Source of the DNA: Centroscyllium fabricii
Lineage: Eukaryota
Direction of reading: 5' to 3'
Assembly: GCA_051313645.2 (NCBI GenBank)
Contig: JBNRSN020000014.1
Span: 11,098,001 to 11,162,000, forward strand
Length of the DNA stretch: 64,000 nucleotides
Part shown: positions 558 to 32,312 of the stretch, piece by piece
Position numbering within the stretch: the first letter of the stretch is position 1
Layout of the letters: every line of letters begins with the position of its first letter
The notes under the pieces: generated by a model
Databases searched by the model: none
What the model was told of the DNA's origin: nothing
Seen by the model: only the letters and a program-made list of their open reading frames with translations
Translations under genes and position numbers: made by a program

Positions 558-2964
558 TTGGTATAAGGGGGCCATGAGAGCGGCTGCTCCCGGGATAAAG
601 CGGTTATAAAAATTAACCATGCCTAAGAATTCCTGCAGCCCCTTAATGGAGTGCGGGCGGGGGAATTCTTGTACCGCCTGCGCCTTAGAGGGCAGGGGTA
701 TGGCCCCTGCTTGGGAAATGTGGTGGCCGAGGAAGTCGATGGTCTCGAGGCCGAATTTGCATTTAGTGGGGCTTAAGATAAGGCCGTGTTCGGTAAGGCG
801 CTGGAACAGGGTCCTGAGGTGCAGGAGATGTTCCTGAGGGGAGGTGCTGGCCACGAGGATGTCGTCTAGATAGACGAAAATGAACTTCAAGTCCCGTAGG
901 ACTGAGTCCATGAGGCGCTGGAAGGCCTGGGCCGCGTTTTTAAGGCCGAAGGGCATCCTAAGAAACTCGAAGAGTCCGAAGGGAGTAATTACGGCCGTTT
1001 TGGGAATGTCCGCCGGGTGTACGGGCACCTGGTGGTAGCCACGCACCAGGTCGTTCTTAGAAAAGATCGTGCGCCCTGCCAATCTGGCGGAAAAATCCTG
1101 GATGTGGGGTACGGGGTACCTATCCGGGGTGGTGGCGTTGTTAAGGCGGCGGTAGTCGCCGCAGGGGCGCCAACCTCCGTCGGGCTTGGGGGCTATGTGG
1201 AGCGGAGAGGACCAGGGGCTGCTGGAGCGGCGGATTATGCCGAGTTGTTCCATTGTGCGGAACTCGGTGAGTGCGATCTCCAGCTTGGCTGGGTCGAGCC
1301 TACGGGCGTGGGCATGGACAGCAGGACCTGTGGTCGTAATAAAGTGTTCCACCCCGTGTTTGGCCTTGCGGGTGGTGAACGTGTGGTTGGTAAGGGCGGG
1401 GAATTCCGCCAGGAGCGTGCTGTAGGCATCGGGGTCCCTGGAGCAGCATTGGGCTGCCGCGTGGGCCAGGAGTGCGGGCCCTGTGGAACATGGGATGGTC
1501 ATCATGGTGTTTAAATTCACCAGGCGGCGCCGAGTTACATCGACCAGTAGGCCGTAGGCGCAGAGGAAGTCTGCCCCGAGGAGGGGAGAGGTGACCTGGG
1601 TCGTTACAAAATCCCAGGTGTACGCGTGGCTTGCAAGGGTTATGGTAAGCTTGCGGGTGCCGTACGTTTTTATATTGGACCCGTTGGCTGCCGCTAGTGG
1701 CGGGCCCCGGGTGCCTCGTTTGGTTTCTGCAGGGGAGGCTGGCACAATGCTGTGCTGCGCGCCTGTGTCGCAGAGGAACCTGAGGCCGGTACCGCTGTCT
1801 GTGGCGAAGAGCAGTGCTCCTGTGTGGCCTACAGACATGGTGGAGGCTGAGTTGGGCCTGGGTTTAAACGCGCATGGCTGTACGCAGCGGTGCGCTTTGT
1901 GGTCAAACTGCGTGTGGTAGTAGCACCAGCCGGTGCTAGAGGGACGCGGTTGTTTGGGCGGGCGCGGGGCCCTAGGTTCAGGCGTAAAGTTGTGCCTGGG
2001 GGGTGAATAGTTGCGCGGGCGCGGGGCCCTAGGTTCAGGCGTAAAGTTGTGCCTGGGGGGTGAATAGCTGCGCTCTACCGATGCCGAGTTAGGTTCGCAC
2101 GTGGTGGAGCGGGTGCGCTGCGCCTCCATCAGCCTGTCGGCTTCCTCGCCGAGCTCATCGTCGCAGCGATGGCCTAGGGCCGCCAAGGCCGGTCTGATGG
2201 CGTGGGGCAATTTGAGGAGGAAGATGGTGCGAAATAGGGTGGCAGGGTTGGGAGTGAGTGCCTGCATCTGACCTAGGAGGTCCGATGGGTCTGCGTCCCC
2301 GAGTTCGGGGAGGTCGAGGAGCTGGCAGTCGCGCTCAAACTGGGAAGGGGTAAACTTCTTAATTAGCGCGGCCTTAAGCGTTTCATACCTGCCTGCAGAT
2401 GGCACGCGCTGGATCTTTGACCACATCCTATCGATGGTCGTTTGTGGAAGGGCTGTGAACACCAAGTCGTAGCGGTCGTCCCCATTGATGCCATGTGAAC
2501 GGCAGCTGGCTTCTATGCAGCTAAACCAGGCCGCTGGCCGTTGCTCCCAGAACTCGGGCAAAACAAGTCCGCGCCCGGTGCTCTGTCCAGCTCCTTGTGA
2601 TCGTGGAGCTTGGTTCCTTGTGTTGGGCATGTTTCTGTAAAAAAAGTCTTTGGCTGGAGTTCCCAGATCCTGTGGCAGCTTTTTCTTTACTGGAATTCGT
2701 TCCAGTTGTCGAGGTCACCACTGTTGCGCCGCAGGCCTAGAAAACACACGGAGCCAGAGCTAGGAGAAAACACGTCTTTACTAGACAACTGTAAAACAAG
2801 GAAGAGGCAGAACCACTCAGTACACACATATTTAAACCGTCCCGCCGTTGGTGACGTCATCACGTCAGCCGACGTGGTGACGTAGTCGCATCACCCGGAT
2901 GAGCGGGCTATGCTCCGCGGAGCCCCGTTGGCGGATTCGATATCCCAGCGGGTGTGCCGCCACA
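558..2964 (-). mobile_element. Gypsy LTR retrotransposon (CsRn1-like), 3'-truncated copy: 5' LTR 2722-2964, tRNA-Trp-type PBS, gag-PR-RT
   Basis: ORF from ATG 2630 with CHCC gag motif (CYYH..HRCVQPC), protease DTG and RT YLDD; breaks off at about 558 before RNase H; paralogous to 10292-14743; 57-nt tandem duplication in gag (about 1960-2070). Confidence 0.93.
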
Positions 2965-3334
2965 AGACTATCTTTCAACTGTCAGAAATATAAAGCAGAG
3001 ACAGACCCTCACCAGGTACAGACTAAGTGACCACCAGTTAGCAGTCAAAAAAGGAAGACAGCAGAAATCCTAGCAGCCAAGAGAAAATAGAATATGCGGT
3101 CACTGCTTGACAGATGAGGTTGAAACAGAGGTGCACTTCCTCCTAAAATGCAAAAAATTCGACAAAACAAGGAAAACATACTTTGACAAACTAAGCCTGG
3201 CAATCCCAGATTTCAAAGAACTAGATTATATCTTAAAACTAAGAATAATCCTTGGCGAGGGAAATAGGGCACAGCTTGGTGCACAATACTTAACAGCATG
3301 CCACAACCTGAGAGACAGTGAATGACCAACATGC
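2965..3334 (+). mobile_element. LINE ORF2 C-terminal fragment (Crack/Daphne/L2-group-like); its 3' UTR continues in 8189-8416 (inverted) and 8692-8745
   Basis: YRLSDHQLAV..GR..RENRICGHC..EVETEVHFLLKC, a CCHC motif typical of LINE ORF2 ends; tail ccaataaa..(ttgaaa)n at 8705-8745. Confidence 0.75.
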
Positions 3335-6300
3335 TGTGGTAACCCATATTGTATATATTACCACTGAATTATTGTCGCCAAGAATTGGCTGTGTGTGATA
3401 CACAGCCCTGTAATACTGTCGTGGAGCCAGGTCAGCCACACCTCTAACTCCTCCCCCAGGTGAGGCCTTTATAGGTGAGGACTGACCGAGGCTCCCTCAT
3501 TCTGTTCTGATGTTCGTTCGGAGGGTAGCTCCAAAGTAAGTTAATAAAAGCCTTTAGTTACGGTATTAAGACCAATTGACGATACGTCAATTTTATTAAC
3601 TTCGAAATTTTAAAATGGAGAGCGGTGCGGTAAAGCCAGAAAAGCTGGATATCAGCCCACAGGACCCAGCCGCCGCCACCACATTTGAACACTGGTTCGG
3701 TCTCCTGGAGGCCTACATGGACACCGCCAAGGCTACCACCGCCGGGAACAAGTTGCAGGTTCTCCGGTCTAGGATCTCCAGCCGAGTATTCTCCCTCATT
3801 CAAGACGCCAAAACCTACCCAGGGGCAGTGGAAAAGCTGAGGAAATGCTACGAGCGCCCGGTCCATTCGGTCTACGCCAGACATGTGCTCGCGACCAGAC
3901 CACAACTACCGGGTGAGACCAATGAACAGTTTGAGCAAGCGCTCCAGGCCCTGGTACGGGTCTGTGGCTGCCAAGCCCGGACAGCAGAAGAGGAGGCGAA
4001 CCTCCTCGTCCGAGATGCGTATGTAACTGGCCTGAGGTGCGTGGAAGCCCGCCAGCGGCTGCTCGAAAAGGACTCTTTGACTCTTGAGGAGGCGATCGCC
4101 ATAGCTAACTCCGTTGAAGGAGCACGCAATAAACTGCAGGCGTACAGTGGCACAAACCCGCAGGCCTACGACATGTGGGCCGCGCCACAACGGGCCCAGG
4201 CCTGGGCAGCACCACAACGGGTCGAGACTCCCACGATGGCTGCGACAGCCGCAAAGGACAAACGGTGCTATTTCTGCGGCCAGGGACAGCACCCGCGAGC
4301 GAGATGCCCAGCAAGGACCGCGACCTGTGAGAGGTGCTCCAAAAAGGGACACTATGCAAAGGCCTGCAGATCAGCACCAGCAGCGCCCAACTCCAGGTAC
4401 AACAGCGCAGCCTGTGAAAGCTCCGTCAGACCTCAGGTAAGCTGCAATAGCAGCGCGATCCAGCGACGGTCCGGGGGTAGAAGCAAAGCGCCCCCATCTC
4501 CCACCCCGATGCGGCAAAGGCCAGCCAAGCGCGACCCCCCAACGCCAGCAGAAGACCCAGCGCGGCCGGTTCCGTGCGAATCACGGGCACCGCCAACCCA
4601 ACCATTGCGGCTCGCTGCGTGCGAACCACGGGCACCGCCAACCCACTCACCGCGGCCCGCTGCGTGCGAACCACGGGCGCCGCCAGCGCGCTCACAGCGG
4701 TCAGCCGCGTGCGAACCATGGGCGCCGCCATCTCGCCTCCAGCGGCCCACCATGTGCGACCCCCCGGCGCCGCCATCTTGTCTCCAGCGGCCCGCCATGT
4801 GCGACCCCTCGGCGCCACCATTTTGTCTCCAGGGCCCCACCATGTGCGAGCCAGGGGCGCCGCCATTTTGTCTCCAGGGCCCCACCATGTACGAGCCAGG
4901 GGCGCCGCCATTTTGTGTACAGCCCCAACCAGCAGGGGGCCGCCACACACAAAAGCACACGTCGGCCTCAGCCATACCCAAAGTGGACCAGGATAGGCCA
5001 CACACCCTGTCAAATTCGATAATGCCAATTAAAATAAACGGCCATATTATCGATTGCCTGTTTGACACTGGAAGCACGGAGAGTTTTGTGCACCCCGATA
5101 CAGTGCAGCGCAGCGGACTGCAGATCCTGCCCACGAACTACCAAGTCTCCCTTGCTTCACAGTCCCACACCGCGGACGTCACCGGCTACTGCTCCGTCAC
5201 GCTCACAGTCAAGGGTTGTGTGTACCGTAATTTTAAATTGTACACCCTCAAGCAGTTGTGTGCCCCAGCCTTACTAGGTCTGGATTTCCAGTGCCACCTC
5301 AAGAGCGTGACAATGGAGTTCGGCGGGACCTTGCCCCCCCTCTCCGTCAGTAGCCGGGACAGTCCCTTCCCAAAGCGGAGCCCGGCCTGCGGCCTCTCCA
5401 CCCTGAAAATCGACCCCCCCTCACTGTTCGCCAACCTCGACCCCAAGTGCAAACCCATTGCTACAAAGAGTCGGCGGTACAGTGTGGGGGATCGCACGTT
5501 TATCAGGTCGGAGGTCGGGCGTATGCTGAAGGAGGAGATAATTGAAGCCAGCACCAGCCCCTGGCGGGCCCAGGTAGTAGTGGTGAAGTCTGGCGAGAAA
5601 CAGCGGCTGGTTATCGATTACAGCCAGACCATCAACCGCTACACCGGGCTCGACGCCTACCCCCTCCCCCGCATCTCGGACATGGTCAATCAGATCGCCC
5701 AATATAACGTGTTCTCCACGATCGACCTTAAGTCGGCGTATCACCAACTCCCGATCCGGAAAGCCGACCGCCCGTACACCGCCTTCGAGGCGAACGGTCG
5801 GCTCTACCACTTCCTCCGGGTCCCCTTCGGCGTGACCAACGGAGTGTCAGTGTTCCAACGGGAGATGGACCGCATGGTTGACCAGAACGAGTTGCGGGCC
5901 ACTTTCCCTTACCTGGACAACGTGACCATCTGCGGCCACGACCAGCAGGACCACGATGCCAATCTGGCCAAATTCCTTGACACGGCGGATAAGCTGGACC
6001 TCACGTATAACAAGGACAAATGTGTCTTTAATACAGACCGGCTCGCCATCCTCGGATACGTGGTGGAGAACGGGGTCCTCGGCCCCGACCCACAGCGTAT
6101 GCGCCCCCTTCAAGAACTGCCCCTACCTCACAACCCCAAAGCCTTGTGGAGATTCCTAGGATTTTTCTCCTACTACGCACAATGGGTCCCACAGTTCACG
6201 GACAAGGCTAGACCACTCCTCAAGGCTGCCGTCTTCCCCCTTTTGGTAGAAGCCCAAACGGCATTCGCCCGGATAAAGGAAGACATCATCAAGGCGACCA

Positions 6301-8188
6301 TGCTCGCTGTTGATGAATCCATTCCCTTCCAGGTGGAGAGCGACGCTTCGGACTTTGCCCTTGCTGCCACCCTGAATCAGGCAGGCAGGCCCGTAGCGTT
6401 TTTCTCCCGCACCCTACAGGGACCCGAAACTCGCCACTCTGCAGTGGAAATGGAGGCCCAGGCCATCGTGGAGGCCGTACGCTACTGGCGTCATTACCTG
6501 GCCGGTAAGCGTTTTGCCCTTCTCACCGACCAGTGGTCGGTGGCGTTTATGTTTAATAATAAACAGAAGGGTAAGATCAAGAATGATAAGATCCTGCGGT
6601 GGCGGATCGAACTCTCGACTTACGAGTACGACATTCTTTACCGACCAGGTAAACTCAATGAACCCCCGGACGCACTGTCCAGGGGAACGTGCGCCAGTGC
6701 CCAGCTAGACCGGCTGAAGGACCTCCACGACCGCCTTTGCCACCCGGGTGTCACCAGACTCGCCCACTTCGTCAGATCCCGTAGCCTCCCCTACTCCATC
6801 ACGGAGATCAAGGCTATGACCCGAGAGTGCCCTGTTTGCGCCGAGTGCAAACCCCAATTTTTCCGGCCAGACACGGTGCACCTCATCAAGGCCACCCGCC
6901 CCTTTGAACATCTCAGCGTGGACTTCAAAGGCCCCCTCCGCACCACCGATCGCAACTCATACTTCCTCACGGTCGTAGATGAGTTCTCCCGCTTCCCCTT
7001 CGCCTTCCCCTGCGCAGATATGACGAGCGCAACGGTGATAAAACACTTCACCACGCTGTTCGCCATCTTCGGTCTCCCCAGCTACATCCATATCGACCGG
7101 GGGGTCATCGTTCAGGAGCAATGAACTGCGTCAGTTTCTGCTCCAGAAAGGGGTTGCCACGAGCAGAACGACCAGTTATAACCCCCGGGGGAACGGCCAG
7201 GTAGAAAGGGAGAATGGGATCATCTGGAAGGCGGTCACCCTGGCTCTGAAGTCCAGAGGCCTTCCAGTGGCCCATTGGCAGGCAGTCCTCCCAGACGCGC
7301 TGCATTCTATACGCTCTCTCCTGTGTACGGCCACTAACGCCACCCCTCATGACTTGATTTTTTCCTTCCCCAGGAAGTCGACTTCGGGGACAGCTCTTCC
7401 TCCATGGCTCACGACACCGGGGCCGGTCTTCCTTAGGAGACACGTCCGTGGCCACAAGACCGACCCCCTGGTGGACAAGGTGCAGCTCCTGCATGCGAAC
7501 CCGCAATATGCATATGTACAGTTCCCGGACGGGCGTGAGGACACCGTATCCATCAGGGACCTGGCGCCCGCAGGATGCACCGCAGAAGAGCCCCTGGTCG
7601 GGCAGCAGCCCGCCCAGCCACAGTACCCAGAACACCCCCTACACCTACGATGGCCTCCGAGGTTTCCAGAGCCCCAGCCGTGGCCAGCCCAAGACCACCA
7701 CTCCGATAGCTCGGACCATCTGAGACCACCATCATCTGAAACCACGGCACCAGAGCCGCTGTCACCACCAACGGACTCGAGCAGCACGGACCACGAAGAA
7801 CCATCACCGGAACTCCGGCGGTCCTCCAGGCTGACACGACCGCCGGACAAACTGATATTGAACTGCTCAGTCCATTCACCCCACCGGACTTAAAATTTTC
7901 AAGAAGGGGTGAATGTGGTAACCCATATTATGTATATTTACCACTGCATTATTGTTGCCAACAATTGGCTGTGTGTGATACACAGCCTGTAATACTGTCG
8001 TGGAGCCAGGTCAGCCACACCTCTAACTCCTCCCCCAGGTGAGGCCTTTATAGGTGAGGACTGACCGAGGCTCCCTCATTCTGTTCTGATGTTCGTTCGG
8101 AGGGTAGCTCCAAAGTAAGTTATTAAAAGCCTATAGTTACGGTAACTACTCGTCCAGTCTTTTATTAAGACCAATTGACGATACGTCA
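3335..8188 (+). mobile_element. Gypsy LTR retrotransposon (Mag-like, two gag zinc knuckles), full length, frameshifted in integrase
   Basis: LTRs 3335-3589 and 7914-8188 (TG..CA); PPT aagaaggggtgaa; ORF 3615-7124 encodes gag (CCHC x2), PR (FDTGS), RT (YLDN), RH and IN; frameshift in the G-run near 7100; the rest of IN runs to about 7860-7893. Confidence 0.95.
3615..7124 (+). pseudogene. gag-pol polyprotein, frameshifted in the integrase core
   Basis: 1169-aa ORF; HIDRG is followed by an out-of-frame continuation (SSFRSNELRQFL..NGQVERENG). Confidence 0.9.
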
Positions 8189-8416
8189 ATACATCCCTAT
8201 GTTGCCAAAGTATAAAACATAACATACATAGTTAAAATGCATAAATACAGATACAGATACAGGTATACAATGTATGGGCAGATATGCCCCTGTACATATG
8301 TATATATATACACACACAATATATCTGTAACCTTTCATCGGTTGCTACATGTCATTGCAGTTACAAACAGTATAATAATTAGTGCTGATTAGTCTCTGTT
8401 TGTGTGTGCGTGCATG

Positions 8417-8691
8417 TGACGTATCGTCAATTGGTCTTAATAAAAGACTGGACGAGTAGTTACCGTAACTATAGGCTTTTAATAACTTACTTTGGAGCTA
8501 CCCTCCGAACGAACATCAGAACAGAATGAGGGAGCCTCGGTCAGTCCTCACCTATAAAGGCCTTACCTGGGGGAGGAGTTAGAGGTGTGGCTGACCTGGC
8601 TCCACGACAGTATTACAGGCTGTGTATCACACACAGCCAATTGTTGGCAACAATAATGCAGTGGTAAATATACATAATATGGGTTACCACA
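8417..8691 (-). mobile_element. Solo LTR, inverted, near-identical to the 3' LTR at 7914-8188
   Basis: Reverse complement matches 7914-8188 with one visible substitution. Confidence 0.95.
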
Positions 8692-8819
8692 TGTATCCTG
8701 CCATGCCAATAAAGTTTTTTAATTGAAATTGAAATTGAAAATTGATAAACCTGCAGAATGGATGTGTAATCGGCAAATGAGCTTCAATACAGGCAAGTGT
8801 GAGGTGGTACTTTTTGGTG

Positions 8820-9103
8820 CAGGTTGAGCACCGTTAATCCGGCACCCTCGGGACCAGGCCGGTGCTGGACCACTGAAAAATCCGAACCACTGAAGGTTCG
8901 GGGAGCGCGTGCGCAGCCCATTCAAAATTGCCGCCGCGCATGCGCAGCCCATTCAAAATGGCCACTGCGCACGCGCAGACCAGTCGGGGAGAGGCCCGCG
9001 CATCGTGAGCGTCCCTGGGATCACATGGGCCAGCCACCGGGATTCGTACCGGACTACTGAAGGTGCCGGACCATCGGGCGCCGGATTAACGGTGCACAAC
9101 CTG
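8820..9103. mobile_element. Tc1/mariner (Tigger/pogo)-type MITE
   Basis: TIR caggttgagcaccgttaatccgg / ccggattaacggtgcacaacctg, TA on the right flank; family recurs at 39752, 44698 and 49547. Confidence 0.8.
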
Positions 9104-9109
9104 TATGAA

Positions 9110-10270
9110 GAGTAAGGAGGCCGCATACTCCCTGGAAAATAAGTGTCTAAATATGGTAGAGGAGCAGAGGGATCGAGGGGTACAGATACACAAATCACTA
9201 AAAGTAGAGGCACAGGTTAATAAGGCCATTAAAAAAAAGCAAACAAAGCACTGGGGTTTATTTCTAGAGGGGCAGAATTGAAAAGTAGTGAAATTATGCT
9301 AAACTTGTATAAAACCTGGGTTAGACCACACTTGGAGCCCTGTGAACAGCTCTAGTCTCCTTATTATAAAAAGCATATAGAGGCACCGGAGAGGGTGCAA
9401 ACAATGTTTACTCTAATGTTACCAGAACTGAGAGGCAATACGGATCAGGAAAGGTCGAACAGGCGGGGGTTCTTTTCTCTGGAAAAGAGAAGGCTGAGGA
9501 GTGAGCTGATGGAGGGCTTTCAGATTATGAAAGGTAGATGTAGAGAGGATGTTTCCACTTGCGTGTGAGACCAGAACTAAACATAGAAACATAGAAGATA
9601 GGAGCAGGAGTTGGCCATTCGGCCCTTCAAGCCTGCTCCGCCATTCAATGAGATCATGGCTGATCATCCAAACCCAGTACCCCGCCCCTGCCTTGTCCCC
9701 ATATCCCTCGATCCCTATCGAGCCTGCACCGACACATATCCCACCCTATCCCCGTTACCCCACATATTCAATCCCCCTAACACTAAGGGTCAATTTATCC
9801 TGGCCAATCAACCTAACCCGCACATCTTTGGACTGTGGGAGAAAACCGGAGCACCCGGAGGAAACCCACGCAGACACTGGGAGAATGTGCAAACTCCACA
9901 CAGACAGTCACCCGAGGCTGGATTTGAACCCGGGTCCCCAGCGCTGTGAGGCAACAGTGCTAACCACTATGCCACTGAGCCGCCCGGGGCCATAAATATA
10001 AAATAATCACGAATAAATCCAATAAGGAACTCATGAGAAACTTCTTTACCCAGAGAGTGGTGGGAATGTGGAACTCGCTACCACAGGGAGTGGTTGAGGT
10101 GAATAGTTTTGATGGATTTCAGGGGAAGCTGGACAAGCACACGAGGGAGAAAGGAATCGAAGGATGTATAGCTGGGGTTAGATCAAGAAAGGTGGGAGGA
10201 GGTCCGTCTGTAGCGTAAACACTGGCATAGACCTGTTGGGCCAAATGGCCTGTTTCTGTGTTGTAATTGC
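9110..10270 (+). mobile_element. CR1/HER1 LINE 3' fragment interrupted by an HE1 SINE
   Basis: Degenerate LYKTLVRPHLE and RNFFTQRVVGMWNSLP motifs. Confidence 0.85.
9581..9985 (-). mobile_element. HE1/V-SINE (tRNA-derived, CR1-type tail)
   Basis: A/B-box head, central V-domain gtgggtttcctccgggtgctccggttt, tail gatcagccatgatc..gaatggcggagcagg. Confidence 0.88.
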
Positions 10271-10291
10271 TTTGTAATTCCATGTAATGCT

Positions 10292-13200
10292 TGTGGCGGC
10301 ACGCCCACTGGGACACCGAATCCGCCACGGGAACTCTGCGGAGCAGAGCCCCGCTCATCCGGGTGACGCGACGACGTCACCACGTCTGCCGACGCGATGA
10401 CGTCACCAACCGCGGGACTGTTTAAATATGCTTGTTGCGAGTGGTTCACTCTCTTTCTTGTTTAGGTCTAGTGTATTAAAGTTGTGTTTTCTCTAGCTCT
10501 GGCTCACGTGTGGTTCCTAGGCCTTGCCGGCGCTACAGTGGTGACCCCGAATTGGAACGACTTCCAAAGAAGAAAAGCTGCCGCAGGATCTGGGACCACC
10601 AGCCAAAGAACTTTTCAAACAGAAAACATGGCAAGACCAAGGAACCAAGCTCCACGAACGCAAGGACTTGGCCAGAACTTAGGACGTGGACTAACCCTAC
10701 CCGAGTTCTGGGAGCAACGGCCAGCGGCCTGGTTTATGTGCATCGAGACCAGCTGCCGCACACATGGCATCCAGGGGGATGACCGCTACGACCTGGTGTT
10801 CTCAGCCCTACCGCAGTCGACGATCGAGCGGATGTGGTCAAAAATACAGCGTGTGCCCACCACAGGCAGGTACGAATCCCTCAAGGCCGCGCTTATAAAT
10901 TTTTTTACCCCCTCTCAATTTGAGCGCGACTGCCAGCTCCTCGACCTCCCCGAACTCGGGGACGCAGACCCATCGGACCTCTTAGGTCAGATGCAGGCGT
11001 TCACACCCAATCCGGCCTCCCTCTTCTGCACCGTCTTCCTCCTTAAACTTCCCCGCTCCATCAGACCGGCCTTGGCGGCCCTTGGCCAACGGAGCGATGA
11101 CGAGCTCGCGGAGGAAGCCGACAGGCTCATGGAGGCGCAGCGCACCCGCTCAACCATGTGCGACCCTAACTCCGCATCGGTAGAGCGCAGCCAATCACCC
11201 CCCAGGCCTAACTTTACGCCTGAACCTAGGGCCCCGCGCCCACCTAGGCAACCGCGTCCCTCTAGCACCGGCTGGTGCTACTACCACACGCGGTTCGATA
11301 ACAAAGCGCACCGCTGCGTCCAGCCATGCGCGTTCAAGCCACGGCCCAACTCAGCCCCCACCATGTCTGTAGGCCACACAGGAGCACTGCTCTTTGTTAC
11401 AGACAGTGGCACAGGCCTTAGGTTCCTCTGCGACACAGGCGCGCAGCACAGCATCGTGCCAGCCTCTGCTGCAGAAACCAAACAAGGCACCCGGGGCCCG
11501 CCACTAGCGGCGGCCAACGGCTCCAGTATTAAAACGTACGGCACCCGCAAGCTTACTATTACTCTTGCAAGCCACACGTACACCTGGGATTTCGTCACAG
11601 CCCAGGTCACATCGCCCCTCCTCGGGGCAGATTTCCTCTGCGCCTACGGCCTACTGGTCGACGTAACCCGGCACCGCTTGGTCAACATGAATACCATGAC
11701 GACCATCCCATGCTCCACAGGGCCCGCACTCCTGGCCCACGCGGCAGCCCAATGCCGCTCCCGGAACTCCGATGCCTACGGCACACTTCTTGCAGAGTTC
11801 CCCACCCTAACCAACCCCACGTTCACCACCCGACAGGCCAAGCACGGGGTGGAACACTTTATAATGACCACAGGCCCTCCCGTCCATGCCCACGCCCGTA
11901 GGCTCGACCCGGCCAAGCAGGAGATCGCGCGCACCGAGTTCCGCACCATGGAGCAACTCGGCATTATCCGCCGCTCCAACAGCCCCTGGGCCTCTCCTCT
12001 CCACATAGCCCCCAAGCCCGACGGAGGTTGGCGCCCCTGCGGCGACTACCGCCGCCTAAACAACGCCACTACCCCGGATAGGTACCCCGTACCCCACATC
12101 CAGGATTTTTCCGCCAGATTAGCGGGCTGTACGATCTTTTCCAAGATCGACCTGGTGCGTGGCTACCACCAGGTTCCGGTGCACCCGGCGGACATTCCTA
12201 AAACGGCTGTTATCACCCACTTCGGGCTCTTCGAGTTCCTCAGGATGCCCTTCGGCCTTAAAAACGCGGCCCAGGCCTTCCAGCGCCTCATGGACTCGGT
12301 CCTACGGGACTTGAAGTTCATTTTCGTCTATTTAGACGACATCCTCGTGGCCAGCACCTCCCCCCAGGAACACCTCCTGCACCTCAGGACCCTGTTCCAA
12401 CGCCTGGCCGAACACGGCCTTATACTCAGCCCCACCAAGTGCAAATTCGGCCTCGATACTATTGACTTCCTCGGCCACCGCATTTCCCAAACAGGGGCCA
12501 TACCCCTGCCCTCCAAGGTGCAGGCGGTACAGGAATTCCCCCGCCCGCACTCTATTAAAGGGCTGCAGGAATTTCTAGGCATGGTTAATTTTTATAACCG
12601 CTTTATCCCGGGAGCAGCCGCTCTCATGGCCCCCTTATACCAGGCCACCCGCGGGCAGTCCAACAAGGCTGCGGTCGAGTGGACGGCCGATGCCGCCACC
12701 GCCTTCACCGCAACTAAAACCGCCCTGGCAAACGCCACCCTCCTAGCCCACCCTAGGCCCAACGCCAGAGTAGCCCTCACCACCGACGCCTCCGACCACG
12801 CGGTCGGGGCCGTATTTGGGCAGTGGACCGGCAACTCTTGGCAGCCCCTGGCCTTTTTCAGCCGGCAACTGCGGCCCCCAGAGGTTAAGTACAGCGCCTT
12901 CGATAGGGAGCTACTCGCTCTCCATCTGGCAGTGCGACATTTTTGTTTCCTCCTGGAGGGCCGCCACTTCACAGCCTTCGTCGACCATAAGCCGCTCACG
13001 TTTGCGATGGCTAAGGTCGCCGAACCCTGGTCGGCTAGGCAGCAGCGCCAACTCGCGGCCATGTCGGAATTTACTACTGACATCCAACACATTTCCGGCC
13101 GCGACAACGTGGTCGCTGACTGCCTCTCACGCCCCACCATTAACGCCGCCCAAATGGCGGTCGATTACGCCCAGCTGTCCGCTGACCAGCTGGCCGACCC

Positions 13201-14743
13201 TGACCTGCTCAATGCAGCAGCAAATCTCCCTGGCCTCCGCTTGGCCAAAATCGCGCACGGCCCCGCCGCCACCGTCGTCTGCTGTGACGTATCCCTACCG
13301 CAGCCCAGGCCCGTCGTCCCCCACGCTTGGAGGCGACACATATTTAGGACCCTCCATGACCTGTCCCACCCCGGCACCCGCGCGTCCATTAAATTAATCT
13401 CGGCCCGGTTCGTATGGCGCGGCCTGCGCAAGGACGTTCGCGCTTGGGCCAGCTCCTGCATTGCCTGCCAGCGCTCCAAAGTGCATAAGCACATCAGGGC
13501 ACCGCTGGAAACTTTTAAAGTACCGGCCAGACGCTTTGACCACGTCCACGTTGATCTCGTCGGGCCACTACCGCCATCCCGGGGCCACATGCACGTTATG
13601 ACCATGGTCGACCGCAACACTCGCTGGCCTGAAGCAGTCCCCCTCACCGCCACCGGCACCACGGACTTGGCCAGGGCGTTCATCGCCACCTGGGTCGCCC
13701 GCTTCGGCGTGCCCACCGACATCACCTCCGACAGAGGACCCCAGTTTACGTCGGCATTATGGGCGGCCATCGCCCGCGACCTCGGGGTAACGCTACATCA
13801 AACCACTGCATACCACCCACAAGCGAACGGGCTATGCGAACGGTTCCACCGCCCAATGAAGGCATCGCTACGAGCTACGCTCAAGTACGCGTCGTGGACC
13901 GACCGCCTTCCATGGGTTCTCCTCGAGCTGCGCTCGGCAGTTAAGGAAGACCTAAACGCCTCGGCAGCAGAACTCGTCTACGGCCAAACATTAACAGTGC
14001 CGGGCGAGTTCCTAGCCGAGCCCAACGCTCCCTGGTCAGCCGACCAGTATTTAAAAGACTTTGCCAACCCGGCACGAGCTTTCCAGCCACTACCAGTGGC
14101 CCGGCATGGAGAGCCGGCAGCTCGGGTGCCAGACGGCATCAAAAACGCTAAATTCGTGTTCGTCCGGCGCGACGGACACCGATCTCCACTACAGCCACCG
14201 TACGATGGCCCCTACAGAGTGCTTCGGGCGGGAGCTAAAACTTTTGAACTACAAATGGGCAATAGAACCGAAACTGTGACAATAGACCGGCTCAAGCCGG
14301 CACACGTTATAGCGGGCGAGACGACTGTCCCCGCACAACCACCACAACGCGGTCGCCCTTCCGCAACAAAACCCGCCCACACTCCACCGCAGAACCAGAA
14401 GCAACAGGCAACACGGTCCGGCCGCATTATCCGGCCACCACAACGGCTCACATAGACTCTTTTACTATTCCTCCCGGACGGATTCTTGGGGGAGCTGTGT
14501 GGCGGCACGCCCACTGGGACACCGAATCCGCCACAGGAACTCCGCGGAGCAGAGCCCCGCTCATCCGGGTGACGCGACGACGTCACCACGTCTGCCGACG
14601 CGATGATGTCACCAACCGCGGGACTGTTTAAATATGCTTGTTGCGAGTGGTTCACTCTCTTTCTTGTTTAGGTCTAGTGTATTAAAGTTGTGTTTTCTCT
14701 AGCTCTGGCTCACGTGTGGTTCCTAGGCCTTGCCGGCGCTACA
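10292..14743 (+). mobile_element. Full-length Gypsy LTR retrotransposon (CsRn1 lineage), apparently intact
   Basis: 246-bp LTRs 10292-10537 and 14498-14743 with 3 visible differences; 4-bp TSD tgct; PBS tggtgaccccga (10539-10550) complementary to the tRNA-Trp 3' end; PPT ttgggggagctg. Confidence 0.97.
10628..14455 (+). CDS. Gypsy gag-pol polyprotein (Gag CHCC, protease, RT, RNase H, integrase), 1275 aa, uninterrupted
   Basis: CDTGAQ; VYLDD; TTDAS; H..SH..C..C zinc finger; HVDLVG/SDRG/CERF DDE; GPY motif. Confidence 0.93.
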
Positions 14744-20109: not shown

Positions 20110-23100
20110 TGTCATAGGTTGGATTCCCCTTTAACTCCTAGGTGGGCTCTTCTCCTTTAAACTGGTCAGCACCTCGTTAACTACTGCATGCACCTGATTG
20201 GACAGCCCAGATTAACCAGTAGTATCTAGAGCTGTATATAAGCTCCCACTTTTCACCATGAGGTTGCCAGATCGTTAATTCTTCTGACTGTGATACTTGT
20301 GTTTAGTTCCTAGCTCTCTGATCCTGTCTGTTCGTGATACTGACCTGCTTACCGGAAATTTGGATTCTCTTCTGCTTGAACTCTGTTTTTGGATTTGTCG
20401 CTCCCTTGGACGGACTACCCGGAATATTACTGTTTCTGAATTTGGATTCTCTCCTGCCTGAACTCTGTTTTGGACTTGTTGCCTCCGTGAACTTTCTGCC
20501 GTTATTGACCTACTGTTTCCCATATCTTTTGACTGCTCAGGAATAAAGGAGTTTACTTCTACGCAAGTTTTCGGTGTATTGCATTTGGGCCCCACCTACA
20601 ACCGTTACAGAACGATCTGGCCAGAAATGGACCCAGCAGACACACCGAATCGTCTTGCACAGGCCGAGTGCGCCCTAAGGCACCAGGGGCAGGCCTTGGG
20701 GAAGTTATTCACTCAATTGGAGCAGCTAACCACCGCCCTGATCCAACAAGCAGCTAAGGACGCGGAAGGGATTCCACCACCACCAGTTTTTGCTCCAGTA
20801 TCGGTGTCGGCATCAATGCCTCACCCACAGGGCCTCACACCGGAACCCCGGGTCGGGGTCCCGGAGCGTTATGCCGGTGAAGCTGGGGAATGCAATCCCT
20901 TTCTCACAAACTGTTCCATTCTTTTTTCATTGCAGCCCCACACCTTTGCCAATGAGGCGGCAAAGGTAGCCTTTGCTATTAACCACCTTACAGGAAGGGC
21001 TCGTCTCTGGGGAACCGCCGAGTGGGAAAGAGAGACTATGGCTTGCTCTTCCTTCCAGAGGTTCGCCATCGAATTAAGAAGGGTGTTCGGTATGGTGACC
21101 TATGGCTCTGAAGCAGCTCGGGGACTCATGAATCTGAGCCAGGTTAATCAGACAGTGGCCGACTATTCCATAGACTTCCGAATCAGAGCTCGTCAGAATG
21201 ATTGGAACTCTGCTGCATTATGTGACGTTTTTCTTCATGGGCTTGCTGAGTACATCAAGGATGAACTGGTCTCCTATGATCTTCCTTCCACCCTGGATGA
21301 ACTAATTAGTCTTGCCACCAGGATCGATCTCCGTATCCAGGCGCGTCGACGTGAGAGACGACTGGGAACGACTGGTCGACCTCCTCCGAAACGGTCCCAA
21401 GAGATATTCGTGGCGCCCAGGTCTACTGCGACAGCAGGGTCACAGCCAGTGGGTCCCGAACCTATGCAGTTGGGTCGCACCAGTCTCTCATTGGTGGAGC
21501 ATGAACGACGCCGCCAGGGGAATCTCTGTTTGTACTGCGGCCAGGCCGGCCATTTTGTTTCCCAATGCCCAGCAAAGGGTCCGGACTCACCAGTAGATGG
21601 TGTCGTACTGGTGAGTCGAACTCCTACAAGACTCTCTCCCAATCCACGACCCTTGTGCCAGGCCAGACTTCTTCTTCCCAGGGGATCCCAGACTCTCGTC
21701 ACCTTTATTGACTCTGGAGCCGACGTCAACATTATTGATGAGGATCTTGTCACACAGCTGGAGATTGACCGGGTTCCACTGCCACAGCCGGTTCCTGCCA
21801 ACGCCCTCGACGGTCACCTCCTGGGAACGGTGACACATCAGACCTCACCGGTTCACATGCTTATGTCTGGTAATCATCATGAAAGTATTCAATTTCATAT
21901 CCTGAGATCACCTCGGCTTCCTTTGATTCTGGGACACACTTGGCTTCGCCGCCACAACCCCCACATTGACTGGAACACGGGAGCTATTGTGGGGTGGAGT
22001 TCCTCCTGTCACCAGGTCTGTCTGAAACAGCTACCGTCTTCCGACAGCCATTAACACCTCTTCCCGCCTCAGATCTTTCGGTGGTTCCCACTGAATACCA
22101 CGATTTTAGGGAGGTATTCAGCAAGGCTAGAGCCACGTCTCTGCCTCCACATCGCCCCTATGACTGCGTCATTGATCTGCTGCCAGGTTCTTCCCCACCC
22201 AAGGGACGTCTGTATTCCTTGTCTGCACCTGAGAGGGAGGCCATGGAAACGTACATCAGCGACTCTATGGCGGCGGGGACCATCCGTTCCTCTTCATCAC
22301 CTGCTGGGGCTGGATTCTTTTTTGTGGGTAAGAAGGACGGGTCGCTGCGACCATGCATCGACTACAGGGGACTTAATGACATCACAATAAAGAACCGGTA
22401 TCCTCTTCCTCTCATCTCTTCTGCTTTTGAGTTGCTACAGGGGGCGACCATCTTTACTAAGCTGGACCTTCGTAACGCCTATCATCTAGTCCGGATCCGA
22501 GAGGGCGATGAATGGAAGACTGCTTTCAACACTCCCTCTGGACATTATGAATACCTCGTAATGCCGTTCGGGTTAACCAACGCCCCGGCGGTATTCCAAG
22601 CCTTGGTTAATGACATATTACGAGACATGCTGAACCGGTTTGTGTTCGTGTACATGGACGACATTTTAATCTTTTCTAAGTCTCGTGAGGAGCATGTTCA
22701 CCATGTCCAGACTGTCCTGCAACGGCTTCTCGAGAACTCATTATTTGTGAAGGCGGAGAAGTGTGAGTTTCACGTCACTACCGTTTCTTTCTTGGGGTAC
22801 ATCATTGCGCAGGGGAGCGTGCAGATGGATCCAGAGAAGGTGTCAGCTGTCGCGTCATGGCCTATTCCAGAGACACGTAAACAGCTACAGTGGTTTCTGG
22901 GATTCACTAATTTCTATCGACGGTTCATTCGCAGCTACAGCACGGTAGCGGCTCCGTTATCGGCTCTTACCTCCTCTAAAGTGCTGTTCCTGTGGTCTTC
23001 TGCAGCGGAGGAGGCTTTTCGAGGTCTCAGGTCCCGGTTCACCTCTGCTCCCATTCTCCAGGTGCCTGATCCGGATCAGCAGTTCGTGGTAGAGGTGGAC

Positions 23101-25630
23101 GCATCAGATGTTGGAGTAGGGGCTATTCTGTCCCAACATTCGGCTTCCGACCAAAAGCTACATCCCTGTGCCTATTTTCCCAAACGCCTGTCCTCGGCTG
23201 AGATGAACTATGACATCGGGAACCGGGAGTTACTGGCGGTCAAAATGGCATTGGAGGAGTGGCGCCATTGGCTAGAGGGGACCAAGCTGCCGTTCCTAGT
23301 CTGGACAGACCACAAAAACCTTGAATAGATTCGCACGGCCAAGAGGCTGAATTCACGGCAGGCTAGGTGGTCCCTCTTCTTTACCTGTTTCAACTTCACC
23401 CTCTCCTACAGGCCTGGTTCTCGCAATGTCAAGCCTGATGCTCTGTCCTGCCAGTTCCAGAAGGAGGAGGGTTCCGCTCTTGGATCTGACCTCATCCTTC
23501 CAGCTCCTTGTCTTATTGCTGCTGTTACATGGGAGATCGAGGAGAGGGTGAGATCAGCCGTGGAGGATCAGGCTGGACCCAGCGGTTGTCCTCCCGACCA
23601 TCTATTCGTTCCCGCGAACCTTCGACCTGATGTTCTCCTGTGGGCCCATGCTTCCAAGCTTTCCTGCCATCCGGGGGCTCAAAGGACCAAAGAGGTTATA
23701 CTGCGGAGGTTCTGGTGGGATACGCTGGAAGAAGACACCCGGGAGTTTGTCAACGCCTGCTCGGTCTGCAACCAACACAAGCCGTCTCATCGGGCTCCCG
23801 CTGGCCTTCTGCAACCTCTGCCGATACCACATCATCCTTGGTCCCACATATCCTTGGACTTTGTTACCGGTCTGCCTCCATCCAAGGGACTAACCACGAT
23901 CCTGACAGTGGTGGACCGATTCAGCAAGATGGCCCACTTCATACCTCTGCCTAAACTGCCCTCGGCGAAGGAGACAGCAGAACTTATGCTGCAACATGTT
24001 TTCCGGCTTCATGGGCTTCCTGTAGACGTAGTCTCTGATCGGGGTCCTCAGTTTACGTCAGTATTCTGGAGGGAGTTCTGCAGTCTGATCGGGGCCACAG
24101 TCAGTCTGTCATCGGGTTTTCATCCGCAGTCCAACGGGCAGTCTGAACGTATGAATCAGGAGATGGAGAAGGCTCTCCGATGTATGGTCTCCCAGAATCC
24201 CTCTTCCTGGTCCCAGCTACTCCTGTGGGTAGAGTACGCTCACAACACTCTGACCAGTTCCGCCACCGGACTCTCCCCGTTCCAGTGCGCCTATGGATTC
24301 CAGCCCCCATTGTTTCCAGACCTGGAGAGGGAGGTTTCCTGTCCGTCCGTCCAGGCATTTATTCATCGTTGTCGCCGGACATGGGACCAGGCTCGGACTT
24401 CGTTGCTTCGCTCGGCGGATCGCTACTCGGCTGCGGCCAACCGTCGTCGCTCGGAGGCTCCTAAATATCAGGCTGGGCAGAAGGTGTGGCTCTCCACTAA
24501 GGATCTGCCTCTCCAGGTGGAGTCGAAGAAGCTTGCTCCCCGTTTTATCGGGCCCTTCGAGATCCAGAAGATCATCAACCCAGCGGCTGTGAGACTCAAG
24601 CTTCCTCGATCTATGCGGGTTCATCCCACGTTTCATGTGTCACGAATCAAACCAGCACGTGAGAGTGCTTTGGTGCCTGTTGCCACGCCCCCTCCACCTC
24701 CTCGTATGCTCGACGGTGGGTTGGTCTACACTGTTCATCGCCTACTTTGCTCCCGTCGTCGAGGGAGAGGACTTCAGTACCTGGTGGACTGGGAGGGGTA
24801 TGGTCCAGAAGAGAGGTCCTGGGTTCCTGCTCGCCACATAGTGGATCCTCAGCTTATGGTCGACTTCCACAAGAGGCATCCCGACCAGCCAAGTAGGAGG
24901 ACTGCGCCCCCTGGGGAGTCTGGGCAAGGGTCCGGTTCCGTGCATTCTCTGGAAACCCTGAACGAGGAGGTACAATCTTCTGATGATGAAAATTCCCTTC
25001 ATTCTTGTGATGAGATGGACGTGGATGAGGGTCCCGAGGAATGTTAGTCCCTCCTCCGCACCCCTCCGCCCACCCGATTCCGGCATTTGGGGTTTGGGAC
25101 GTCAGGAGTCGTCCCTTGACGGGGGATTTCTGTCATAGGTTGGATTCCCCTTTAACTCCTAGGTGGGCTCTTCTCCTTTAAACTGGTCAGCACCTCGTTA
25201 ACTACTGCATGCACCTGATTGGACAGCCCAGATTAACCAGTAGTATCTAGAGCTGTATATAAGCTCCCACTTTTCACCATGATGTTGCCAGATCGTTAAT
25301 TCTTCTGACTGTGATACTTGTGTTTAGTTCCTAGCTCTCTGATCCTGTCTGTTCGTGATACTGACCTGCTTACCGGAAATTTGGATTCCCTTCTGCTTGA
25401 ACTCTGTTTTTGGATTTGTCGCTCCCGTGGACGGACTACCCGGAATATTACTGTTTCTGAATTTGGATTCTCTCCTGCCTGAACTCTGTTTTGGACTTGT
25501 TGCCTCCGTGAACTTTCTGCCGTTATTGACCTACTGTTTCCCATATCTTTTGACTGCTCAGGAATAAAGGAGTTTACTTCTACGCAAGTTTTCGGTGTAT
25601 TGCATTTGGGCCCCACCTACAACCGTTACA
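20110..25630 (+). mobile_element. Chromovirus (sushi-ichi/Tf1-like Gypsy), full length, defective
   Basis: 500-bp LTRs 20110-20609 and 25131-25630 (3 visible differences); flanks ctcaat on both sides; gag with EPMQLG and CCHC; PR IDSGA; RT YMDD; RH; IN; C-terminal chromodomain ([15 protein letters not shown]); frameshift near 22030 and TAG at 23326. Confidence 0.96.
20627..25047 (+). pseudogene. Chromovirus gag-pol with frameshift and nonsense mutation
   Basis: ORFs 20579-22054, 21994-23328 and 23548-25047 are consecutive parts of one polyprotein. Confidence 0.9.
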
Positions 25631-27115: not shown

Positions 27116-27634
27116 GAAACTTGGAGCAGGAGCAGGCCATTCGGCCCTTCGAGCCTGCTCCGCCATTTTGATGAGATCATGGCTGATCATCCAAACCCAG
27201 CACCCCCCTCCTGCCCTCTCCCCATATCCCCCAACACCCCCAACTCTAAGAATTATATCTCACACACATACTCATGGGCAATTTTTAGCACCTCCAATTC
27301 ACCTAACCTGCATGTCTTTGGGTGGTGGGAGGAAACCGGAGTACCCGGAGGAAACCCACACGAACACGGGGAGAACATGCAAACTCCACGCAGAGAGGTC
27401 GCCGGGCCAAGCAGGATTCGAACCCAGGAGCTCCTTATTGTGAGGCAGCAGTGCTAACCACTGCGCCACTGTGTGGGTTTCCTCCGGGTACTCAGGTTTC
27501 CTCCCACCACCCAAAGACATGCAGGTTAGGTGAATTGGAGATACTAAAAAATTGCCCATGTGTATGTGTGTGAGATATAGATAGTTCTTAGAGTTGGGGG
27601 TGTCGGGGGATATGGGGAGAGGGTAGGAGGGGGG
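27116..27634. mobile_element. Head-to-head V-SINE pair; the + copy is split by a Gypsy element and completes at 32313-32402
   Basis: Inverted V-domain sequences; the tail resumes after the LTR at 32313. Confidence 0.8.
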
Positions 27635-30600: not shown

Positions 30601-32312
30601 TAAGGGTCGAGAGGCCACAGGTAGCGTGCCGGGGATCTGCGCTGAGCGCCGGTTGCTGACCGTGAGCGAGGGAAGGGGCCCACCGTACGCCATGGTAATG
30701 CTTTGGAGATGGCACTGGAAGTCCAGACCCAATAGTAATGGAGCGCAGAGCTGCGGCAGCACGAAAAAGCTAAAATTATTAAAGTGCACGCCCTGCACCG
30801 TTAGAGCCACTGCGCAACGCCCAGAGACGTCCGCAGATTCAGATTTAGAAGCCATTGAAATTCTTTGGCTCGCTGGCATAACCTTAAGGGAGAGGCGCTT
30901 TACTGTCTCAGGATGAACAAAACTCACCGTGCTCCCACTGTCGAAAAGGCACACCACGTCCTGTCCGTTCACTCCCACCGGCATCATCGATTTCCCGAGC
31001 GTTTGGGCCTTGTTCTGGTCCAGAGTCACCGATGCCAATATTGGGTCAGCCGATTCCTCTTGATCCGAAGAGTAGTCCTCCGGGGCCGGTCTCCAAGATG
31101 GCTGCCGCCATGCGGTGTACTGCGGAGGGGGTGGCTGGGTCCAATATGGCAACTGCTGCCACGAGTGGTACCGAGTGGGGGATGGTTGAGTCCAATATGG
31201 CTGCTCCCATGTTCCGCACGCGGCGCTGCCCGGTTTCGGTTTAGGGGCTGATGTGGTCGCCTTACAGACTTTGGCATAATGTCCCTTTTTCCCACATTTT
31301 GAGCAGGCCGCTTCTCTTGCCGGGCAGCTACGTCTCGGATGCTGAGACTGCCCGCAGAAGTAACAGTTTGCCGTCTTCGCGTGAGCGGCTGCGATCATTT
31401 CTTCCGCCGGCCGTTGCGCCGGCGCTGTCCAAGATGGCGGGGCTGGGCCCGTATAATTGCCGGAATATGACGAAAGATTTAGTGAGGCCACGTCCAGCGC
31501 ATTTCCCAGATCCGTTGTTGCCTGCAGGTCAAGGCCGTTCTGCTCTAACAGCCTCTGTCTGATATAGTCCGACCTGAGGCCTGTAACATATGCATCTCTA
31601 ATGAGACTGTCCACATGGAGCTGGGCCGATAGCACTCTGCATTCGCAGGCCCGTGAGAGCACTCTCAGCACTCTTAAAAATTCCACGCTGGACTCACCGG
31701 GTTGCTGCTTCCTGGTGGCTAGGATGTGTCTGGTGTGGACGATATTGGGTGCCCGGTTGTACTCTGCCTTGAGGATCCTGATAGCATCCAAAAATGATGA
31801 TGCGTCCACAATCATGGAGTACACCTGAGGGCCCACCCGGGCGTTGAGGAGCCGCCGTTTGTCCTCTTCGGTCCTGACGACCGCTGCGTTCGCTCTCAGG
31901 TACGCATCGAAAACATCATACCAGTGCGAGAATGTGTTTGATGCGCCTGGTGTCCGGGGATCCAGTTCAAACGTTGCTGGCTTGAGCATCGCTTCCATCT
32001 TCAAAATTTAGTGAATAAAATTGTGACCGAAATAACGACCTCGTGGACGAGTAGTTATAAGGGTGAAACAATACGGCTTTTATTCACTAAATGGTGGACA
32101 TGCACCAGGTAGTCGACCGTCCCCAGGAATGGCCGGGGGATGGGAGATGGCCGCTTATATACCTCCTCCTGGGAGGGAGGAGTCGCGGGCGGAGCCAGCC
32201 TGGGCATGTCCAGGTAATCTTACAACAGGTTATATACAAACATGGATATAAGCATGATTACAGAGATACATCATAGGGTGGGTATATACAATGGAAACAG
32301 TGGTTTACCACA
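27635..32312 (-). mobile_element. Gypsy LTR retrotransposon (Mag-like, same lineage as 3335-8188), full length, defective
   Basis: 291-bp LTRs 27635-27925 and 32022-32312 (1 visible difference); imperfect 5-bp TSD ggggg/gcggg; PPT aaagaaggggtgaa; gag ATG at 31998; frameshift near 30650; nonsense at 28652. Confidence 0.95.

Follow-up and report, generated by a model that had tools for sequence, protein, structure and literature searches.

Exchanged target-site duplications are a published signature of transposon-mediated inversions, and the accessible text on Galileo in Drosophila buzzatii describes them for inversions such as 2z3, which it ascribes to ectopic recombination (PMC2775673). The locus described here, part of a 64,000-nucleotide stretch of DNA that was analysed as a whole (the window), resembles the Galileo cases in having two opposite-orientation copies of one element with exchanged duplications. 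It differs in that the element is an LTR retrotransposon in a fish-type genome, the reversed DNA is 228 bp of unique sequence, and one partner is a solo LTR; moreover, its LTRs are not reciprocal chimeras, and it is known from one, inverted, sequence. A second parallel is provided by the Alu/L1 recombination-mediated inversions of human and chimpanzee, for which, in the available portion of that study, the ancestral state was read from mismatched duplications (PMC2603318). These too are small inversions between inverted retrotransposons; however, the elements in that account are non-LTR and are accompanied by outgroup and PCR support, whereas here the breakpoint appears to be hidden by solo-LTR formation.

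Template switching between the arms of inverted repeats may likewise leave near-perfect arms around an inverted spacer, as far as the accessible account goes, with arms of 7–16 bp and spacers of up to 70 bp (PMC8604942). The present locus falls outside this short-repeat class, having 275-bp arms and a 228-bp spacer. Gene conversion and recombination are described as limiting LTR dating, such that divergence need not measure insertion age (PMC7251063), and recombinant, chimeric elements have been flagged by mismatched duplications (PMC4806543), both according to the accessible parts of these papers. In the former, the converted regions lie within an element's own LTR pair, whereas the partner here is a neighbouring inverted insertion. 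A literature search for the exact arrangement returned no direct report, most subscription papers and supplements lying outside the search.

Layout of the locus

The LTR of another Gypsy family cuts a LINE remnant at position 2965. The remnant (2965–3329, plus strand) comprises an ORF end, with one in-frame stop and a terminal stop at 3323–3325, and the start of the 3′ UTR; the ORF end matched no Pfam family and only unnamed Atlas clusters. It is followed by the left copy of target-site duplication 1 (3330–3334, plus) and by a full-length element, all of whose features lie on the plus strand. The 5′ LTR (3335–3589; 255 bp, TG...CA) is without 20 bp found in the other two LTRs, and the primer-binding-site position (3591–3602) is a 12-nt perfect complement of the 5′ LTR stretch with the poly(A) signal. 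The gag-pol region (3615–7893) has a tandem array of a 45-nt unit inside gag (4510–4923) and a single frame break within integrase near 7100. A polypurine tract (7901–7913) then precedes the 3′ LTR (7914–8188; 275 bp).

The inverted LINE 3′ UTR spacer (8189–8416, minus; 228 bp) carries the inverted copies of both duplications, that of duplication 2 at 8189–8193 and that of duplication 1 at 8412–8416, in addition to the first half of a conserved LINE 3′ motif (8202–8210), all on the minus strand. Beyond it lie a solo LTR in the opposite orientation (8417–8691, minus; 275 bp), the right copy of duplication 2 (8692–8696, plus), and the LINE 3′ end (8697–8745, plus), which has a TTGAAA-type tail and contains the second half of the motif with a poly(A) signal (8702–8714, plus). 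Homologous Gypsy copies in opposite orientation thus stand at both ends of the spacer, and the coordinates given in a preliminary description of this DNA are correct.

The full element is a Ty3/Gypsy LTR retrotransposon, with TG...CA LTRs, a polypurine tract, and the pol order protease, RT, RNase H, and integrase (Pfam matches at residues 476–563, 663–821, 884–1008, and 1038–1168). The matching 4–6 bp duplication that also characterises Ty3/Gypsy elements is seen only once the spacer is reversed. No env-like ORF was seen in the element, and the exact gag-pol protein was absent from the protein collection searched. Rfam gave 0 matches in 2700–10300; within the window, BLAST with the LTRs, the spacer, and the LINE flank as queries gave no further close copies; and neither the LINE motif nor the LTR end had a match (0 each) in a viral contig collection.

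Orientation of the spacer

As assembled, the flanks of both elements are mismatched. Reversal of 8189–8416 brings both duplication pairs into register over exactly 5 bp, but not over 6–9 bp, as had been proposed earlier. Two specified 5-mers would match by chance with a probability of about 1e-6, or about 1e-3 with the left one discounted. The left 5-mer is present twice, 3 nt apart, in LINE copies (contigs aligned on 2900–4500) and is hence natively repeated; the copy at this locus thus lacks a single 8-nt unit, so that the match on the left does not by itself prove a duplication. Exchanged target-site duplications are present, the left site being partly confounded by the native repeat, and with that caveat the matches demonstrate two insertions, each with a 5-bp duplication. 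A related element at 27635–32312 has a 5-bp duplication pair with 1 mismatch. A larger inversion involving the other Gypsy pair (559–2966, minus; 10290–14743, plus) was rejected, since the element on the right still has a 4-bp duplication of its own.

Outside evidence on orientation came in part from four of 15 sequencing runs, all 15 of them consisting of contigs; the four were aligned on 2900–4500 only. Among the matches listed, the loose end behind 3334 continues into the start of the reversed spacer in three of the four runs (X10, X12, and X1); the remaining run, X6, barely covers the 3334 junction. The two-part LINE 3′ motif is contained in the window only with the spacer reversed, its halves then being separated by 18 nt, which is the commonest gap among relatives (27/100). 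The same LINE ORF end accompanies the motif in 18 of 100 metagenome loci carrying it, and lies on the same strand in all of these (18/18). Because the motif pattern was derived from the flipped model, motif order was itself selected, and it is the ORF link and the loose ends that count as independent. The flipped spacer scored better than the spacer as given at 49, worse at 22, and equally at 3 of the 74 loci (out of 100) with enough upstream DNA, a weak result given that the loci are related and AT-rich. The LINE relatives confirm that the spacer runs backwards relative to the ancestral order, and the 3′ UTR continuity that had been claimed on reversal is borne out by the loose ends, the ORF strand, and the motif gap. 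The LINE flank carries 4–5 near-private differences in 370 bp; the contigs on 2900–4500 have little or no depth for locus-private LINE letters, which is no proof of absence.

The same junctions would arise had the assembly wrongly oriented the spacer across the 275-bp inverted repeat, possibly merging its arms. The contigs are unable to span this repeat, and assembly errors lay behind mismatched duplications and solo LTRs elsewhere, in the accessible part of one paper (PMC4806543). Nevertheless, four LTR elements of about 4.5–5.5 kb are assembled end to end without N, three of their LTR pairs differing at 1–3 sites, which suggests that long reads underlie the assembly. In addition, the arms have one difference between them and share minority forms in place of those usual in the family, and wrong orientation alone leaves the difference between the 5′ and 3′ LTRs unexplained. 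An artefact is considered quite improbable.

Three LTRs and the route of exchange

The 3′ and solo LTRs differ by 1 substitution and 0 gaps, in keeping with the near-identity reported earlier, and this substitution (LTR position 128) is private to the solo LTR. Comparison of the 5′ LTR with the 3′ LTR gives 5 substitutions and 4 gap events (2, 1, 1, and 20 bp), and with the two others together 5–6 substitutions and 4 gaps; the previously described substitutions and indel are real, albeit the indel measures 20 bp and not about 21 bp. The full element thus has unlike LTRs, while the window's remaining three LTR pairs show 3, 3, and 1 substitutions and 0 gaps. Equal gap rates in LTR (3–4 events) and coding sequence (1 frame break in about 4270 nt) gave p = 0.004–0.0006, in a test that takes no account of slippage-prone runs, where two or three of these gaps lie. 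A change at LTR position 210 is shared by the 3′ and solo LTRs; it breaks the poly(A) signal and the primer-site pairing and looks like a post-insertion mutation. At 3376 and 3406 the 5′ and 3′ LTRs have different forms, both of which apparently occur among other copies in the contigs on 2900–4500, which points to two lineages. The commonest letter at 3367 occurs in neither LTR type, and no piece spanning a whole LTR was among the matches listed.

Two Gypsy insertions in opposite orientation most probably recombined here, and we place the probability of this general event, an exchange-type inversion of inverted copies, at about 90%. Two members of one high-copy Gypsy family, from different sub-lineages X and Y, inserted into the LINE 3′ UTR about 220 bp apart and in opposite orientation, with a 5-bp duplication each, subject to the caveat on the left site; homologous recombination between the inverted copies would then have turned round whatever lay between the points of crossover and swapped the duplications. 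To this extent the history in the preliminary description stands. Its 228-bp size and its LTR mediation do not follow, as a label-only simulation gave the observed junction order by three routes: a short flip, an inversion of ~4.9 kb against the other element's 5′ LTR, and an internal crossover with solo-LTR formation. The 228 bp is thus the minimum inverted DNA only.

We tentatively favour, at somewhat less than even odds, the route in which both elements were full length, crossed over internally, and the right-hand one collapsed to a solo LTR. Inverted arms of ~4.9 kb would have surrounded the 228 bp, the crossover falling within the extended internal homology or else at an LTR tip, and the right-hand chimera would later have become the solo LTR. 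The 3′ LTR would then be Y's own 3′ LTR, the U3 of the solo LTR would derive from Y's 5′ LTR, and the 5′ LTR would be that of X; over the last ~65 bp of the solo LTR, the match would call for conversion along a short tract or for a change already inherited. Both this route and the ~4.9-kb inversion would make the 3′ and solo LTRs largely twins of one insertion with little conversion. The gene conversion formerly invoked for their identity is accordingly not established as necessary, since such twin-LTR routes give the same junction order. When the favoured route was simulated, the 3′ LTR and the solo LTR U3 both stayed joined to duplication 2, their common pair, and it was counted in its favour that the 3′ and solo LTRs differ about as little as true LTR pairs elsewhere in the window, whereas the 5′ and 3′ LTRs differ more. 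The internal homology, which at 4.3 kb is about 16 times as long as an LTR, would also favour an internal crossover on expected rates. As the position-210 change looks post-insertion, this route too requires some copying or a birth defect. The crossover was sought on 2900–4500 only, among the differences and loose ends listed, where its position was not located.

The short flip is a possible but less probable history, in which full X and an inverted solo LTR Y recombined via their 275-bp LTRs, 228 bp was flipped, and Y overwrote the 3′ LTR of X at positions 16–220 at least. It explains the common position-210 change directly and the agreement of the primer-site stretch with the 5′ LTR, and the arms lie close, all 275 arm bases pairing in a single-strand DNA fold. 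Its cost is one-way copying of at least 205/275 bp—whether in a long tract of conversion, by flipping repeatedly, or through a single inter-strand template switch—whereas a plain crossover would leave reciprocal chimeras, of which none are seen. Template switching is able to homogenise arms and invert the spacer, but in the accessible text the arms are at most 16 bp and arm conversion accompanies only 1/10 spacer inversions (PMC8604942).

Were the copying reversed, the 3′ LTR would be the genuine twin of X's 5′ LTR and would have overwritten the solo LTR, such that the 5′/3′ divergence truly reflects how old X is and dating would hold. The 5 substitutions in 255 bp fit an X that inserted soon after the LINE, judged by the near-private differences in the LINE flank (P(>=5) = 0.66–0.82). 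This variant is unlikely, however, given its 4 gap events, when the window's other LTR pairs, three in number, have none, and a commonest letter at 3367 found in neither LTR type. Furthermore, of the near-private gag sites listed, only 3/8 are non-synonymous, which suggests that the internal region is younger (about 0.45% or less), and at that age P(>=8 differences) is 0.003.

Histories without recombination of this kind are highly improbable. Two cDNAs may have co-integrated with crossed ends, and indeed one U3 end and one U5 end serve each duplication pair, but after crossed integration the 5′ and 3′ LTRs should be identical, contrary to what is observed. Alternatively, the LTRs may have been unlike at birth, through intermolecular strand transfer, and a later simple flip against an identical solo LTR would require no conversion; unlike LTRs at birth and an identical neighbour are, however, two rare events.

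Dating, continued flipping, and priming

Dating from the 5′ and 3′ LTRs is unsafe under the favoured internal crossover and under the short flip with whole-LTR conversion alike, and the earlier warning against it is upheld. Under the internal crossover the surviving element would be a chimera whose two LTRs are not a dating pair. Its age by LTR dating is probably an overestimate. The locus is thus a worked example of how an apparently intact LTR element can be recombinant, with LTRs from different insertions: dating pipelines without a target-site duplication check would age it wrongly, and solo-LTR formation can hide the size of an inversion. Such rearrangement is well known in repeat-rich DNA. 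The inversion was not seen to affect any gene and the mechanism class is already published, which makes for little wider importance.

The inverted repeat of about 780 bp in the preliminary description is right as a span (778 bp), but its arms are just 275 bp. It is doubtful that this structure, as the core left after a ~10-kb near-palindrome of two retrotransposons collapsed, still flips recurrently, with both orientations segregating and arms copying mutations. If the segment does still flip, inverted-repeat recombination in a vertebrate germline would have a natural reporter here that can be dated.

Where a tRNA-primed primer-binding site is expected, the element has a stretch complementary to its own LTR. 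Positions 3591–3602 pair at 12/12 nt with the 5′ LTR (0/300 shuffles reach 12) and only with that LTR, the pairing being broken in the 3′ and solo LTRs, an observation counted against the internal-crossover route. The complementarity recalls Tf1-type self-priming, under which the paired LTR stretch would be the 5′ end of the transcript. A literature search for the feature in this Gypsy clade, with most subscription papers and supplements outside its reach, gave no direct report. In the related element, the complement between its own LTR and primer site extends to 15 nt, and cross matches reach 7.

Gypsy element, LTRs and target-site duplications

The Ty3/Gypsy element at 3335-8188 has the domain order protease, RT, RNase H, and integrase, with a single frame break within integrase near 7100. 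Its 5′ LTR occupies 3335-3589 (255 bp) and its 3′ LTR 7914-8188 (275 bp), and an inverted solo LTR lies at 8417-8691 (275 bp), positions identical to those in the preliminary description. In the assembled order, the flanks of both the element and the solo LTR are mismatched; reversal of 8189-8416 restores both pairs of target-site duplications (TSDs), as had been proposed, over exactly 5 bp and not over 6-9 bp. The related Gypsy element at 27635-32312 (minus strand) has a 5-bp flanking pair with one mismatch, which makes this TSD length plausible for the lineage. Among the contigs aligned to 2900-4500, LINE copies have two occurrences of the left 5-mer separated by 3 nt, and the window's copy lacks one 8-nt unit found at this site in others; hence, the left match could partly be a native LINE repeat. 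Within gag, 4510-4923 is an in-frame tandem array of 45-nt (15-codon) units that the gag of the related element lacks.

A single site separates the 3′ LTR from the solo LTR, whereas the 5′ and 3′ LTRs differ by five substitutions and gaps of 2, 1, 1, and 20 bp. The window's three other LTR pairs are gap-free and show 3, 3, and 1 substitutions; the 3′/solo pair (one substitution, no gaps) is like them and the 5′/3′ pair is not, and the 5′ and 3′ LTRs are probably not twins of one insertion. The LINE flank carries 4-5 near-private differences in 370 bp (1.1%-1.4%), an upper bound on the age of both insertions; five substitutions between true twins would fit at that age, and twinship, though very unlikely, therefore keeps a small probability. 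A comparison of the 3-4 gap events in the LTRs with the single frame break across approximately 4270 coding bases yields p = 0.004-0.0006 under equal rates, although some of the LTR gaps fall in slippage-prone runs. Among the differences listed for 2900-4500, where depth fractions are not copy numbers, the 3′ LTR's form at 3406 (shorter by one base) accounts for 8%-15% of depth and the letter it carries at 3376 for 69%-92%; the 5′ LTR's letter at 3382 reaches at most 0.25%, and the commonest letter at 3367 is shared by neither LTR type. Five of the eight near-private gag sites listed are synonymous and three non-synonymous, which suggests a rare sub-lineage and, for the internal region, an age of at most about 0.45%. 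The 20-bp gap in the 5′ LTR (window 3563-3564) is probably derived, because it has 2-nt microhomology at its borders and the absent segment contains a motif retained in the LTR of the related element.

Orientation of the spacer

The spacer at 8189-8416 is, on sequence evidence, inverted relative to the LINE, and three lines from outside the window support this. Contigs of 4 of the 15 sequencing runs found were aligned to 2900-4500, and in runs X10 (13 contigs), X12 (16), and X1 (9) the listed loose end behind 3334 continues with the beginning of the reversed spacer; run X6 barely covers this junction. The labels of the runs suggest that the host is a fish. A metagenome scan for the two-part LINE 3′ motif returned 100 loci, of which 18 include a sequence related to the end of the window's LINE ORF (15/55 among loci with at least 500 nt upstream), on the same strand as the motif in 18/18. 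In 16 of these, 138-564 nt separate the ORF from the motif, the remaining two being one contig bearing two motifs; the corresponding distance in the window after the flip is 210 nt, and the complete motif is missing from the window in the given orientation. With the spacer flipped and the right TSD (duplication 2) in single copy, the gap within the motif is 18 nt, the most frequent value in relatives (27/100), and a 23-nt gap occurs in 1/100 loci. All three lines agree with the continuity of the LINE 3′ UTR claimed previously. When the remainder of the UTR was scored in 74 loci, a weak test, the flipped spacer did better in 49, the given orientation in 22, and 3 were tied. Across the 100 loci, the conserved motif terminates many fish-type LINEs, and in 29 a TTGAA-type tail comes after it; a Pfam search of the LINE ORF end matched no family.

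Mismatched duplications have elsewhere arisen from mis-assembly, according to the available text of PMC4806543. Such an origin for the spacer orientation is very unlikely here, since the assembly runs through four LTR elements of the window from end to end, and the two arms are distinguished by one site and have minority forms in common.

Possible routes of recombination and LTR dating

The exchanged duplications argue strongly (probability about 0.9) for two Gypsy insertions, X and Y, in opposite orientation, followed by recombination, the explanation established for such exchanges in PMC2775673 and PMC2603318. They support the two independent insertions and recombination of inverted copies previously proposed; the accompanying 228-bp LTR-mediated flip with LTR conversion is one of three routes fitting the junctions. 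These routes all reached the observed junction order in a label-only simulation, and the crossover position is, in this model, not given by the junctions.

In route 1, full-length X would cross with solo Y within the LTRs, flipping 228 bp. This demands one-way copying of at least LTR positions 16-220, yet it directly explains the change at position 210 common to the 3′ and solo LTRs; on balance it is possible but doubtful. The position-210 change disrupts the poly(A) signal and a 12-nt pairing with the primer-site stretch, and has the look of a mutation that arose after insertion and was then copied; it counts against routes 2a and 2b, which jointly fall somewhat short of an even chance but stay ahead of route 1.

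In route 2a, solo X would recombine with the far LTR of Y, inverting approximately 4.9 kb with the crossover close to the LTR tip. In route 2b, presumably likeliest as the first event given the length of homology, both insertions would be full length, with a crossover within their 4.3-kb internal homology, and the right-hand chimera would next collapse into a solo LTR. In both, the 3′ LTR and the U3 of the solo LTR would remain joined to duplication 2, making their identity one of descent; a collapse inside the 137-bp perfect tract (LTR positions 73-209) in route 2b would leave only positions 210 and 220 and the 20-bp gap unexplained.

Template switching is able to convert arms and invert a spacer at once; in the cases covered by the available text of PMC8604942, conversion accompanied 1/10 spacer inversions and arms measured up to 16 bp, in contrast to the 275-bp LTR arms here. 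A single-strand DNA fold paired 275/275 arm bases, which shows opportunity, not activity.

Under routes 1, 2a, and 2b alike, the 5′/3′ LTRs are not a dating pair, and the earlier view that LTR-LTR dating is invalid for this element holds in all three. Gene conversion is an already known limit on such dating in the available text of PMC7251063; the signature and mechanism class are likewise known, and the locus is a new instance. A literature search covering few subscription papers returned no direct report of the exact LTR arrangement, and the rearrangement had no apparent effect on a host gene.

Primer site and neighbouring repeats

The primer-site position 3591-3602 is a perfect 12-nt complement of LTR 3538-3549, a stretch with the poly(A) signal, and 0/300 shuffles reached such a match. 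A separate 15-nt match occurs within the related element at 27635-32312, cross matches between the two elements being 7 nt only. The complementarity covaries between the two families and resembles the self-priming listed for Tf1 and related elements in the available text of PMC6934838; a literature search for this feature in this Gypsy clade returned nothing direct. A third Gypsy element (20110-25630) has an 11-nt complement between primer-site stretch and LTR. Its 500-bp LTRs show 3 differences, its flanks match over 6 nt, and short-period tandem repeats lie at its borders.

A second Gypsy family forms an inverted pair around the locus, at 559-2966 (minus) and 10290-14743 (plus), with 86% identity across 2.4 kb. 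Because the right copy retains an uninterrupted frame of 1327 codons and keeps its 4-bp duplication intact, an inversion between this pair was rejected. Fold-back repeats lie at 27201-27636, 36891-37171, and 38061-38337, the first made from a SINE and adjoining the related Gypsy element. The SINE near the locus presumably resembles the HE1 elements of sharks and rays. Immediately right of the locus, a different LINE fragment is split by a MITE-like insertion (8820-9103) whose terminal inverted repeats are 28 nt long.
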